A stretch of DNA of 64,000 nt from Patescibacteria group bacterium (lineage in GTDB: Bacteria > Patescibacteriota > Minisyncoccia > Phycocordibacterales > Phycocordibacteraceae): NCBI GenBank assembly GCA_019752595.1, contig JAIELV010000001.1, positions 120,486 through 184,485 of the forward strand. The letters run 5' to 3'. The notes under the pieces are model-generated. The model was not told the origin of the DNA and did no database searches. It worked only from the letters and a program-made list of their open reading frames with translations. Both the position numbers and the translations under genes were made by a program. This document shows positions 4,495 through 11,052 of this stretch, in pieces. Each line of letters begins with the position of its first letter. The stretch's first letter is position 1.

Positions 4495-5265
4495 CTATCC
4501 TTTAGCTAGCATACGTGCTGTTGGGATTGCGTCCAGCACGTTGGGTCGAGTCTGGGCGGCTTTATAAAATGCCTTAGACTCTCTAGAATATCTATACAGC
4601 GCACCACGAGAGACTCGAGGCCAATGTTGGCGGTAGTAATTTATCATTTGCTCATCTGTCATTGAGGTCCAATTTTTTTTGACGCGAATGATTGCAGCGA
4701 GAACTTCTGGGCGCTTGTAGGCGACTTCATAAAATGTACAGGACTCATTTGAAAGAATTTGCAACTTACCGCGTGAGACTCCAGGCCAATGTCTATTGTA
4801 GTGCTCAATCATCTGCTGGTCAGTCATCGAAGTCCAGTCTGTTCGAGCGCGCTCGATAGCGTCGAAAACGCCTGGTCTCCGCGAAGCAGCTTGATAGAAA
4901 GCGTTTGCAGCCCTCGAAACTGAAGGGAGCTTCCCTCGAGATATACCGGACCATTCAGCGCGGTAGTATGCCAACATTTCTTCGTCGGTCATCGACTCCC
5001 AATCATTTAAGGCGCGAGGAATCACCTCAAGGACTCGCGGCCTCCTATATGCAGCTCTGTAGAAAGATTCCGCCTCCCGTGAAAGTTTTTGAAGGCGGCC
5101 TCTCGTGACTCCTGGCCAATGTTTATTGTAGTAAGCAATCATCTTTCTGTCGTTCAACAAATACCATCTTGCGCGTTCATGCGCGATTTGCTCACTAATT
5201 TTAAGTGCAGGATTGGTCGCTTGTTGGTCGCTCTCTACATGTAAAAGCTCTTTACGAGTCATCAT
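4495..5265 (-). CDS. Hypothetical protein with four ~55-aa tandem repeats
   Basis: W.SMTD..MI.YY..HWPGVSRG.L...S.E...FY..A..RP.V..AI repeated four times. Confidence 0.8.
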   Translation of the reverse strand: MMTRKELLHVESDQQATNPALKISEQIAHERARWYLLNDRKMIAYYNKHWPGVTRGRLQKLSREAESFYRAAYRRPRVLEVIPRALNDWESMTDEEMLAYYRAEWSGISRGKLPSVSRAANAFYQAASRRPGVFDAIERARTDWTSMTDQQMIEHYNRHWPGVSRGKLQILSNESCTFYEVAYKRPEVLAAIIRVKKNWTSMTDEQMINYYRQHWPRVSRGALYRYSRESKAFYKAAQTRPNVLDAIPTARMLAKG

Positions 5266-8462: not shown

Positions 8463-9254
8463 ATGAAAATACTTCTTTGGGTTGGGGTAGCGCTCTGCCT
8501 CGCGCTTGGCGGAGTAGGTTTGTTTTTTACTTTTTCAGAAGATATCCCAGAGACGTACCAAGAACCAGTCCTCACGAATCAGCAGACACATGTAACCGCA
8601 GAAGAGCCTCAAGCAGTAATTCCAGAATCTAAAAAAAGCACAGTAACGTATACGCGGCTCAGTACCTACGTTGATTCGGTAAAAAGAAACTTGGGAGTGC
8701 TTATACGCTACGAAGCATTTCCCGTGTGCGATTCCGTTTCCACGAAAGAAGTCTTTTCCGTAGAAACAGGGGACGGGCAAACGTACCCTGCTGATTGTAA
8801 TGGGGTTGTCGAACATACCTACAAAACACGAGGAACCTATACTGCTCGTTATCTAAGAAACGGCACGTCGGTAGCCTCTGTTGCTGTGGATGTTACAAAA
8901 GCGTTGGATGCACCTCCGCAGGTTCCTAGTGTAGAACCAAAGGAAAATCCGCCAGGGTCTTTGATATATGCGGACTTTTGGAATGCCGCCTCCAAAGGCA
9001 CGACGCTTGAGAAATACGTGTGGGGAGCTTCAGGAGACGATGATTACTACGACGGCGGAGAGGGAATTGATACGCTTCAGTATTTTGGTACGCGCGCGGA
9101 ACATGAAATAGTGCGTAGCCCACTAAGCCCCGCAGGTGCGAATAGTTTTCTTCTGATTCGTAGGATACGCGACAATTCTATGGATATCGTCCTGAATATT
9201 GAGATATTCGTGTTTGCAGATCAGGTAGTGAAAGCAGAAGACCTGTTCAAATAA
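8463..9254 (+). CDS. Membrane-anchored surface protein with PKD-like and RTX-like motifs
   Basis: N-terminal TM; GDGQ...HTY..RGTYTA; GASGDDDYYDGGEGIDT...NIEIFVFAD. Confidence 0.7.
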   Translation: MKILLWVGVALCLALGGVGLFFTFSEDIPETYQEPVLTNQQTHVTAEEPQAVIPESKKSTVTYTRLSTYVDSVKRNLGVLIRYEAFPVCDSVSTKEVFSVETGDGQTYPADCNGVVEHTYKTRGTYTARYLRNGTSVASVAVDVTKALDAPPQVPSVEPKENPPGSLIYADFWNAASKGTTLEKYVWGASGDDDYYDGGEGIDTLQYFGTRAEHEIVRSPLSPAGANSFLLIRRIRDNSMDIVLNIEIFVFADQVVKAEDLFK

Positions 9255-9305: not shown

Positions 9306-9560
9306 CTAAGACATGTGTCCTGAGACGAGTTTCGTCATCTCGAACATGGTGACTTCCTTCTTACCAAAGAGCGGCATGAGTTTGTCATCCGCGAGGATGT
9401 TTCTCTTGTTCTTCGGGTTCTGGAGGTCGTGCTTCTTGATGTACTCCCAAATCTTCTTTACCACCTGTCCGCGAGGCAAAGGACCCTTGCCAACTACTGC
9501 TTCAAGTTCAGCAGAGAGGTTGTAGGGTTTTAATAGGGCGGGGTTTGCTTTTCGTACCAT
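9306..9560 (-). CDS. SWIB/MDM2 domain protein
   Basis: LSAELEAVVG..PRGQVVKKIWEYIKKHDLQNPKNKRNILADDKL..FG..VTMFEM. Confidence 0.93.
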   Translation of the reverse strand: MVRKANPALLKPYNLSAELEAVVGKGPLPRGQVVKKIWEYIKKHDLQNPKNKRNILADDKLMPLFGKKEVTMFEMTKLVSGHMS

Positions 9561-9722
9561 ATAAAATCAGTGCCTTTTTATGTTATTAACTTGACCAGCA
9601 CAGTATATAGCACAAAAAGCAAGGTCCCTATGCCCCTGGGGAAGCCCATAAGTTGTCCCAGGGCACCCTAGCCTATTGGCTACAAGGGGGTACACTGTCT
9701 GCATATATACGTCATTAATCCT

Positions 9723-10967
9723 ATGAAACACACATTTGTAGTCTCTCTAGCAATTGTTTTGTCTCTTTTTGTATCTACTAATGCCTTTGCGGACCACGAC
9801 GCAACTGGAGCTTCATCAGAGGCCCATACCACTACGTCTACGACTGGAGGCACGTCTGCATCGGGCGGAACTTCGGGTAGCGCTGCAAGCGGAAGCACGC
9901 AAACGACATCCGCAACGTCTGTGACTGTAACGGCCGTTCCAGTAAAGATGGAAGTTGAAATCGAAACTGAAAACGGCGTACAGACAACGACCGTGAAGCC
10001 TGATAGCTCATCAGCGCCTACGTGCGGGGGCAAGGAAATGCCAAAACTTGAATGTCCGTCAGGATATGCAGTTTCGTGCAATACAGCAATCAGTCAGTGG
10101 GCATGTTTGAAAAGCGCCGCTTCAGCCGATACGCGCACGGGAGTTTCAACAGGCGCAGGTGCCGCGGCAGGTGCTACATCGGTGAAATATCTTGACCAGG
10201 ACGATGATAACGACGGTGTAACCACCGTTCTTGAAGACAGTGCTGTGAAATCATCGATTTTCATCAAATTAGGTGACGTAAAGGGCGAGTCTGAAGACGA
10301 TAAGGCTGCCGCCTCTGATGTATTCATCAAATTTGGCGGCGTTGATGGAGAAAGCACAAAGGGTGCTGTCCCAACAGAAAGTCAATTTGAAATTTTGATT
10401 GACTCAAAAAAAGTGCGCGGATGGGACCCGAAGACAAAAGAAGAGGTTGTAAAGATCGCTCCGAAGTCTGCCGCAGATGTTTCCGATGAGGAAGAACTCG
10501 CACTCTTTGTTGCTGCGATTTCTGCTGACGACCCACGCATGGAACAGATTTCGTTGAACTTCACGAAGATTGAGTTCAAGTATCGTTCTGACGCAAAACT
10601 GTTCGGACTCATCCCGTCCTCTCTTCTACAAGACGTATCTCTTGAGGGTGGTGCAGTAAACTTGAAGAAGCCATGGTACTCGTTCTTGTTTAGTGGTGTC
10701 ACTGACCTCGACGACCTCGCGGCGGCTGCGCAAGCAACTAAGGACAAAGGCCACAAAGATGAGATTGAAATTCTTTCATGGAGTTTCGGTGCAAGTAATG
10801 CGGGGAGTATGTCTGCAGGCAGTGGCGGTGGAGCAGGTAAAGTGAATATCGCTGTTGGCGACGTGAACGGAGACGGCGTAGAAGATATTACACTCGCTGG
10901 ACTCGCTACCAACTTTGCAATTCTTCTTGATACTGTGAAGTCGGCTCACGAAGAAAGCGGAAAGTAG
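9723..10967 (+). CDS. Secreted protein containing scrambled Hcp-like fragments
   Basis: Signal peptide (AFA/D), S/T/G-rich linker, Hcp1-like motifs, FG-GAP-like GDVNGDG. Confidence 0.8.
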   Translation: MKHTFVVSLAIVLSLFVSTNAFADHDATGASSEAHTTTSTTGGTSASGGTSGSAASGSTQTTSATSVTVTAVPVKMEVEIETENGVQTTTVKPDSSSAPTCGGKEMPKLECPSGYAVSCNTAISQWACLKSAASADTRTGVSTGAGAAAGATSVKYLDQDDDNDGVTTVLEDSAVKSSIFIKLGDVKGESEDDKAAASDVFIKFGGVDGESTKGAVPTESQFEILIDSKKVRGWDPKTKEEVVKIAPKSAADVSDEEELALFVAAISADDPRMEQISLNFTKIEFKYRSDAKLFGLIPSSLLQDVSLEGGAVNLKKPWYSFLFSGVTDLDDLAAAAQATKDKGHKDEIEILSWSFGASNAGSMSAGSGGGAGKVNIAVGDVNGDGVEDITLAGLATNFAILLDTVKSAHEESGK

Positions 10968-10989
10968 TACTCATTCTCTAGTATTTTCG

Positions 10990-11025
10990 AAAAAACCGCC
11001 CTTCGACAAGCTCAGGGCGGTTTTT
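10990..11025. terminator. REP-like terminator, copy 2
   Basis: Identical to 9253-9288. Confidence 0.85.
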
Positions 11026-11052
11026 TCGTGCAGTATGGTAAAAATACACTTC

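Follow-up and report, generated by a model that had tools for sequence, protein, structure and literature searches.

What is a protein that carries short stretches of the type VI subunit Hcp, out of order, behind something that resembles an export signal? Hcp is a cytoplasmic subunit and has no signal peptide. The protein encoded at 9723..10967 of the window (the whole stretch of 64,000 nucleotides that was analysed) instead begins with an N-terminal hydrophobic stretch. The reading preferred here, to which a probability of roughly 0.55 is given, is that of a likely exported scaffold whose short in-frame pieces of Hcp and (via homologs) of VgrG were likely written in by short-patch recombination and are likely kept for outward display.

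The ORF is real and not an assembly chimera, because independent contigs tile it and a relative that is about 84% alike is colinear across 9700-10864. The contigs stem from two studies and tile the ORF at 99% or better. One independent contig spans 9400-10720 without a difference, others cover 10492-11019 and 10619-11025, and the run holding the best contig may be the source sample itself. In addition, 20 full homologs of the ORF were found. The host genome, called G000 below, measures 903 kb in 3 contigs and is 100% complete. With one homolog carrying the name Minisyncoccia and an Atlas neighbour cluster made up mainly of Minisyncoccota, it is taken to be a patescibacterium of Parcubacteria type.

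The gene and the parts of its product are as follows, in window coordinates:

9723..10967, + strand: ORF of 414 aa, a mosaic member of a Patescibacteria scaffold family
9723..9791, + strand: predicted Sec signal peptide, residues 1-23 (hydrophobic 11-mer of 2.86 from residue 7; cleavage site placed by eye)
9792..9932, + strand: linker rich in S, T and G, residues 24-70 (low pLDDT, poor conservation)
9933..10112, + strand: beta hairpin and four-cysteine module, residues 71-130 (in close homologs only)
10188..10238, + strand: Asp-rich piece resembling a calcium loop by sequence, residues 156-172
10257..10304, + strand: Hcp N-terminal strand piece, copy 1, residues 179-194
10317..10358, + strand: Hcp N-terminal strand piece, copy 2, residues 199-212 (relatives have other pieces or an empty slot here)
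10386..10742, + strand: folded scaffold core, about residues 222-340 (order of elements as in the core of a plain paralog)
10410..10448, + strand: piece assigned, via homologs only, to VgrG-related spike proteins, residues 230-242
10539..10583, + strand: Hcp C-terminal strand piece, residues 273-287 (in-register replacement of a scaffold hairpin)
10740..10850, + strand: longest Hcp piece, residues 340-376, Hcp positions about 17-53 (best-conserved block)
10848..10892, + strand: FG-GAP-like piece, residues 376-390 (E 0.04)
10893..10949, + strand: C-terminal helix, residues 391-409 (two alternative alleles among close homologs)
10988..11028, strand not given: 15-bp perfect hairpin 3' of the gene, terminator-like, loop of 11 nt

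No membrane helix was found in the protein beyond the N-terminal hydrophobic stretch. The gene stands alone, with a SWIB-domain gene on the opposite strand on one side and a HAD-like gene on the other. A promoter scan of the locus came out at chance level, the terminator scan did not flag the hairpin, no RNA run was listed among those containing the locus, and comparison with the Atlas gave no usable feature match. The hairpin and the stretch 9405-9458 of the SWIB gene match many contigs in metagenome runs, and the hairpin looks like a dispersed repeat. Two other genes in the window drew attention. The one at 4495-5265 (- strand) encodes 256 aa in four to five diverged repeats, each some 55 residues long, and matches no family above cut-off. 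The one at 8463-9254 (+ strand) encodes 263 aa with an N-terminal hydrophobic stretch, a weak PKD match and a Gly/Asp-rich C-terminal part that weakly matches the protease SapA (E 9e-4); it may be another mosaic.

Is the resemblance to Hcp genuine? Residues 340-376 match positions 12-50 of the 129 in the Pfam T6SS_HCP profile (E 2e-8, 35 bits against a cut-off of 23.5) and residues 19-56 of the solved Hcp1 chain 1y12 (E 1.3e-9). The Hcp profile also matches weakly at its positions 104-129 of 129. Taken singly, copy 1 of the N strand and the C-terminal strand are weak against 1y12, at 7.6 and 0.2 bits with a genome-level E of 0.195. Pieces were located by exact six-residue strings that also occur in a set of 178 whole Hcp proteins, and this places residues 182-190, 206-212, 274-280 and 343-376 at Hcp positions 8-16, 11-17, 122-128 and 20-53. 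The order is N, N, C-strand and then positions 20-53, which is not native.

A whole Hcp domain, of about 130-160 residues in native order, is absent from the protein, and judged by its sequence the protein is neither Hcp nor a permuted Hcp. No second match to PF05638 exists in the 903-kb genome, where the window ORF is the sole match, and VgrG (TIGR03361) has no match there either. PHROGs added only an unnamed Hcp-like family. The initial annotation had seen a secreted patchwork of short, out-of-order Hcp fragments. Its motif coordinates all agree with the translation, four pieces do stand in non-native order with the one at 340-376 above the Pfam cut-off, no complete permuted Hcp or chimera turned up, and the Hcp match is significant. 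The FG-GAP-like piece that it also reported is present, but below the cut-off.

The rest of the protein belongs to a large family. A profile made from the window ORF and its 20 homologs matches 56 of the 151 genomes of the family and, at E 0.001, 1,782 representatives. Thirty scaffold ORFs were compared, taken from the top-scoring loci of the family plus the paralog in G000 itself; 25 contain 0-1 Hcp strings and 5 contain 12-27. The body of the protein is thus a common Patescibacteria scaffold that is mostly plain. The claim of in-frame foreign pieces in a surface-protein scaffold is supported by this, with 25 of 30 family loci plain and pieces that vary in kind, number and order. Mosaic and plainer paralogs coexist within each of the genomes G000, G027, G047, G057 and G004; the plain one of G000 lies around C1:463614. 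Since plain and mosaic alleles of one scaffold coexist, the family is a good test bed. An N-terminal hydrophobic stretch is found in 133 of 149 proteins and an internal one in 1 of 149. No relative of the scaffold was found in viral contigs, and of the 8 loci from a metagenome scan, one is a scaffold gene. Databases label such genes 'type VI component Hcp', which may falsely imply that Patescibacteria have type VI systems.

A genome-wide mutator was considered and rejected, as only one ORF of G000 is rich in pieces and one more has a single shared piece. A second patchwork-looking gene does exist in G000, at C1:315362-315988 (L045:4363-4989, - strand). It encodes 208 aa with a hydrophobic leader, a piece common to homolog P0007 and then a second block, with no Pfam, NCBIfam or plasmid match. 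The second block presumably resembles exported proteins of Bacteroidota.

The pieces recur among homologs. From the top 150 representatives 148 were used, dropping the window's own fragment P0022 and the 1,272-residue P0253; the set is enriched for mosaics because the ranking profile itself holds Hcp pieces. At least one Hcp string occurs in 118 of the 148 (shuffles give a mean of 29.6) and at least three in 91. By exact strings, the median piece is 9 aa long and the 90th percentile 15 aa. Two or more pieces are present in 60 proteins, among which 37 distinct piece orders were counted; 18 keep native order and 26 have a repeated piece type. No piece comes from Hcp positions 81-110, and hardly any from 71-80. 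These orders and repeats, with the core unused, rule out a circularly permuted Hcp. The idea that the pieces are simply the best-conserved spots of Hcp found no backing, as position use and conservation correlate with a rho of 0.07 in an Hcp set that mixes two subtypes.

Hcp is not the only source. A search of NCBIfam with 26 proteins picked by eye found VgrG or VgrG-related pieces in 12. Examples are TIGR03361 at E 4e-11 (P0269), the best of them, NF033848 at E 2e-9 (P0151) and Phage_base_V above cut-off. Residues 230-242 are assigned as VgrG-related because homologs match NF033848 at positions of about 205-260 (E 6e-9 to 0.01), where the window protein itself has no match. A donor search of plasmids and long proteins found nothing for this piece, nor for the calcium-loop-like one. 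For the commonest C-terminal piece of the family an origin in the needle family was tried, but the matches are too weak (E 0.04-0.1) and the piece is left unnamed. Overall, mosaics draw on a limited common vocabulary of Hcp, VgrG and FG-GAP pieces, which occur in frame only. Non-Hcp pieces were counted via exact shared six-residue strings only, so the rarer or more variable ones are undercounted.

When GTDB genomes were scanned for one Hcp tail piece, 103 stretches came up, in 100 distinct ORFs. Of these, 54 are whole Hcp (37 of them in Planctomycetota) and 11 are scaffold genes; the 35 others are for the most part partial Hcp at the ends of loci. About ten of the others are unrelated proteins, from Pseudomonadota, Planctomycetota, Myxococcota and Hydrogenedentota. 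The vocabulary therefore crosses both phyla and scaffolds.

How the pieces sit in the genes bears on how they got there. Counted over 13 mosaic genes, the reading frame has 287 Hcp strings and the five other frames together have 6; the 6 is the telling figure, because the genes were chosen by their in-frame count. When a profile of 31 plain cores is compared with Hcp, the best match is the very strand and register that is replaced in mosaics (p 0.012, probability 3.5%). This weak resemblance could seed annealing. Between G000 and G047, residues 183-230 align without a gap (48 of 48), yet the slot holds different pieces. Other homologs alter the length of the slot, so equal length is common and not the rule. 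A close relative has a diverged 99-base block of the same length and also a different 3' end, and among 15 close homologs the nearest neighbour shifts from block to block. Near the gene there is no long repeat, and the genome has no second copy of the pieces.

Several known systems resemble this. Hcp/TssD (PF05638, TIGR03344) and VgrG/TssI (TIGR03361, NF033848), of type VI and related contractile injection systems, are the source of the pieces. Unlike them, the window protein has only pieces of 7-37 residues, shuffled behind a signal-like leader, in a genome without another Hcp or VgrG match. Specialised (evolved) Hcp and VgrG effector fusions also join Hcp sequence to unrelated domains, but they keep the whole tube-forming domain and travel with the type VI machine; neither applies here, as judged for the machine by the search for Hcp and VgrG.

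Diversity-generating retroelements rewrite surface proteins of small-genome bacteria from a template. They share with this locus the diversification of surface proteins by templated rewriting. Unlike there, no template repeat was found, the template is foreign, and reverse transcriptase (RVT_1, PF00078) has no match in G000 and four related genomes (0 of 5). A dedicated neighbour gene was considered and rejected, since the flanking genes vary over 14 neighbourhoods and are common to G047 only. The suggestion of an active diversification machine is thereby left with neither a reverse transcriptase nor a conserved neighbour gene.

No account of the pattern was found in the literature, with subscription journals thinly covered and supplements outside the scope. 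The nearest ideas are bridging themes and SPDIR. Bridging themes are, in the accessible text of Kolodny et al. 2021 (PMC8136508), segments of 20-80 residues common to independently evolved domains, often ligand-binding. The 37-residue block common to Hcp and a non-Hcp scaffold is similar. As described in that text, the themes are faint, ancient and part of folded domains; here near-verbatim pieces are gained, swapped and repeated in close relatives, mostly in unstructured linkers.

SPDIR, going by the portions of the reports that were accessible, replaces 3 to about 100 bp at microhomologies, more often during transformation (10.1101/2023.11.22.568220; 10.1101/2024.07.02.601687). The likeness to that description lies in piece size, same-length swaps and in-register placement. 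Replaced patches have a median within its range, with the window's longest piece, at 111 bp, just over; the resemblance in register is seen at the protein level, as microhomology is unreadable without a donor. In the same portions SPDIR is rare, undirected and suppressed by RecA, DprA, RecJ and ExoX. It would leave the fixed vocabulary, the frame restriction and the conservation seen here unexplained. This locus contributes a sizeable family in which plain and mosaic alleles occur, replacement in register, and a direct contrast between synonymous and replacement changes.

The pieces probably originated by patch recombination. DNA would enter through a competence channel, and ComEC is present in 5 of 5 genomes. 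Natural competence has been demonstrated in Saccharibacteria, according to the accessible parts of PMC10633639 and PMC12455944. Incoming DNA would anneal at sites of existing resemblance, in the scaffold or in a piece acquired before, and replace a patch; patches would then move between family members and duplicate inside the gene. RecJ, which suppresses short-patch events in Acinetobacter as far as the available text goes, is present, which speaks against this route. Given no reverse transcriptase, no conserved neighbour and a SPDIR without vocabulary, we infer rare patch capture, exchange within the family, and selection.

A recent and direct capture has left no trace. No donor DNA was found, the longest exact match between the window gene and a sampled Hcp gene being 15 nt. 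The capture is therefore old or indirect, and the junctions are unreadable.

Why would the pieces be kept? For the G000 and G047 gene pair, on which alone the selection estimate is based, block 340-376 has a pN of 0.05 and a pS of 0.84, against 0.31 and 0.75 for core residues 289-325. Identity reaches 33 of 37 in the long block, but 44 of 82 in the core (Fisher p 1.5e-4), and 13 of 27 identical residues use an alternative codon. The block is 36 of 37 identical in homologs P0002 and P0009, and at most 27 of 37 among 111 Hcp proteins; some homologs have it shortened or lost (11 to 24 of 37). The GC3 of pieces tracks that of the remainder of the gene (rho 0.91, n 13). With the long piece best conserved and the pieces in host codon usage, they are likely kept as peptides. 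That selection acts on the peptides is very probable.

Conservation might also arise without selection, if a tolerant secreted gene that resembles an abundant gene is overwritten by environmental DNA. This would fit the placement in register at a pre-existing resemblance, as well as donor families that are multi-copy and widespread and the fact that no binding partner is known. It is nevertheless unlikely. Pieces occur in frame only, plain paralogs in the same genomes are untouched, and housekeeping genes, though expected to dominate free DNA, have no string runs common to mosaics. The codons follow the host and not the sampled whole Hcp genes, which are mostly high in GC (median GC3 0.71). 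Mosaics share the codon of sampled Hcp genes at 0.339 of shared residues where 0.406 is expected (one duplicate row included). Among mosaic Hcp pieces the figure is 0.466 against 0.411, a slight excess that speaks for overwriting, but homologs are closer to each other than to any Hcp.

Another improbable account starts from a whole Hcp. A gene with a signal peptide and complete Hcp would have fused to the scaffold, decayed to a few strands and been shuffled by internal duplication. Whole Hcp behind leaders is indeed found in 4 of 400 other Patescibacteria genomes, and small Pseudomonadota proteins have N, middle and tail in native order. Many mosaics start with the N strand just after the signal, with N-then-tail the commonest start. 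Within-gene repeats in five genes share codons above expectation (0.603 versus 0.454, n 156), as internal duplication would have it. But strict native order is missing in 42 of the 60 multi-piece proteins, 26 repeat a piece type, different Hcp subtypes co-occur with VgrG and FG-GAP pieces, and one piece lies inside the folded core. The tree of that core argues against decay as well. It has 77 columns, with word-bearing columns left out, and 191 rows, is poorly resolved and carries an imperfect plain label. Plain and word-bearing rows interleave on it, with 26 changes, at least 7 of them forced by starred branches, and gain not distinguishable from loss.

Patch recombination with selection on the peptides leaves the question of what the peptides do. 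Structure models were used here. The model of the window protein has an overall pLDDT of 53, with Hcp pieces mostly below 50. The long piece and both N-strand copies are mostly unstructured in it, and the Hcp C-strand piece takes the shape of a scaffold hairpin. On these models, therefore, the protein would not be a shape mimic. The plain paralog core folds confidently (pLDDT 88), and its elements follow one another as they do where the mosaic model is confident. Foldseek at E 0.001 found no match for the whole model or the plain core. In VIA, the plain core resembles an RWD/UBC-like layout, with a best Z of 6.9 (rmsd 3.9, 100 aligned), which is below the level that would mean more than a common layout. 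For the whole model the best Z is 4.5, and neither search has an Hcp among the matches listed.

The pieces may be displayed outside as binding mimics, for which the chances look about even. The peptides would be linear ligands or decoys, bound by proteins that sit on neighbours (hosts, attackers, grazers or phages) and normally recognise subunits of injection machines. Display is suggested by the likely export of the protein and its lack of a membrane anchor, by the non-native shape of the pieces and by their origin in several families. If the pieces are selected ligands, this would be a so far unknown layer of recognition between microbes, with ready-made probes for its readers.

The initial annotation had raised a different use, as an inhibitor of host tube assembly. 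The protein or its peptides would enter a host or attacker and poison type VI or related tubes by strand exchange. Tube and spike pieces do dominate the vocabulary, and the long piece spans a hairpin and loop that we take to serve as ring-stacking contacts of Hcp. Among the unrelated carriers there are also small peptides that resemble bacteriocins (L080, L088). Hcp tubes assemble in the cytoplasm. This creates a problem of location, because the window protein is likely exported; moreover, the gene has no linked gene for delivery, the model shows one piece locked into the fold of the scaffold, and the vocabulary goes beyond Hcp to several pieces from unrelated families. The suggestion is unsupported and quite unlikely to be right.

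An assembly chimera or a chance resemblance can be dismissed: the single pieces other than 340-376 are individually weak, but the long piece has its E value of 1.3e-9, and there are independent contigs and 20 homologs.

If the preferred reading of an exported, recombination-fed display holds, and the pieces are selected ligands, it would be a case of natural, large-scale horizontal transfer below the level of the gene, of 30-100 bases, under selection. So far such events were mainly seen as rare laboratory mutations. A tentative and rather less probable extension is that recombination-fed mimicry is shared by many bacterial and archaeal phyla. Exported proteins would then collect peptides of injection machines and of abundant surface proteins that are read by a widespread receptor or defence, and the Patescibacteria scaffold would be a display that is re-edited slot by slot.

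Some further genes may be recorded. L071:1222-1542 (+ strand), from the cultured Aliikangiella marina, encodes a 106-aa protein of secreted type with Hcp N, middle and tail and another piece; similar genes occur in L064, L082 and L103. The peptides of L080 and L088, of 59 and 63 aa, have a leader that by eye is double-glycine-like, and the Hcp tail piece at their end. L095, from Nitrosopumilus, joins repeated short pieces to a whole Hcp in one protein. Its repeated piece returns, with an internal Hcp tail, in the 733-aa Planctomycetota protein L056. In four other Patescibacteria genomes (L035, L036, L037, L038), whole Hcp stands behind signal-like leaders and is possibly exported without a type VI machine. 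Finally, L210:4659-5075 (+ strand), on a Spirosoma plasmid, encodes a helical hypothetical protein of 138 aa with no family above cut-off; at its C-terminus it matches the C-terminal piece that is commonest in the scaffold family (E 7e-3).
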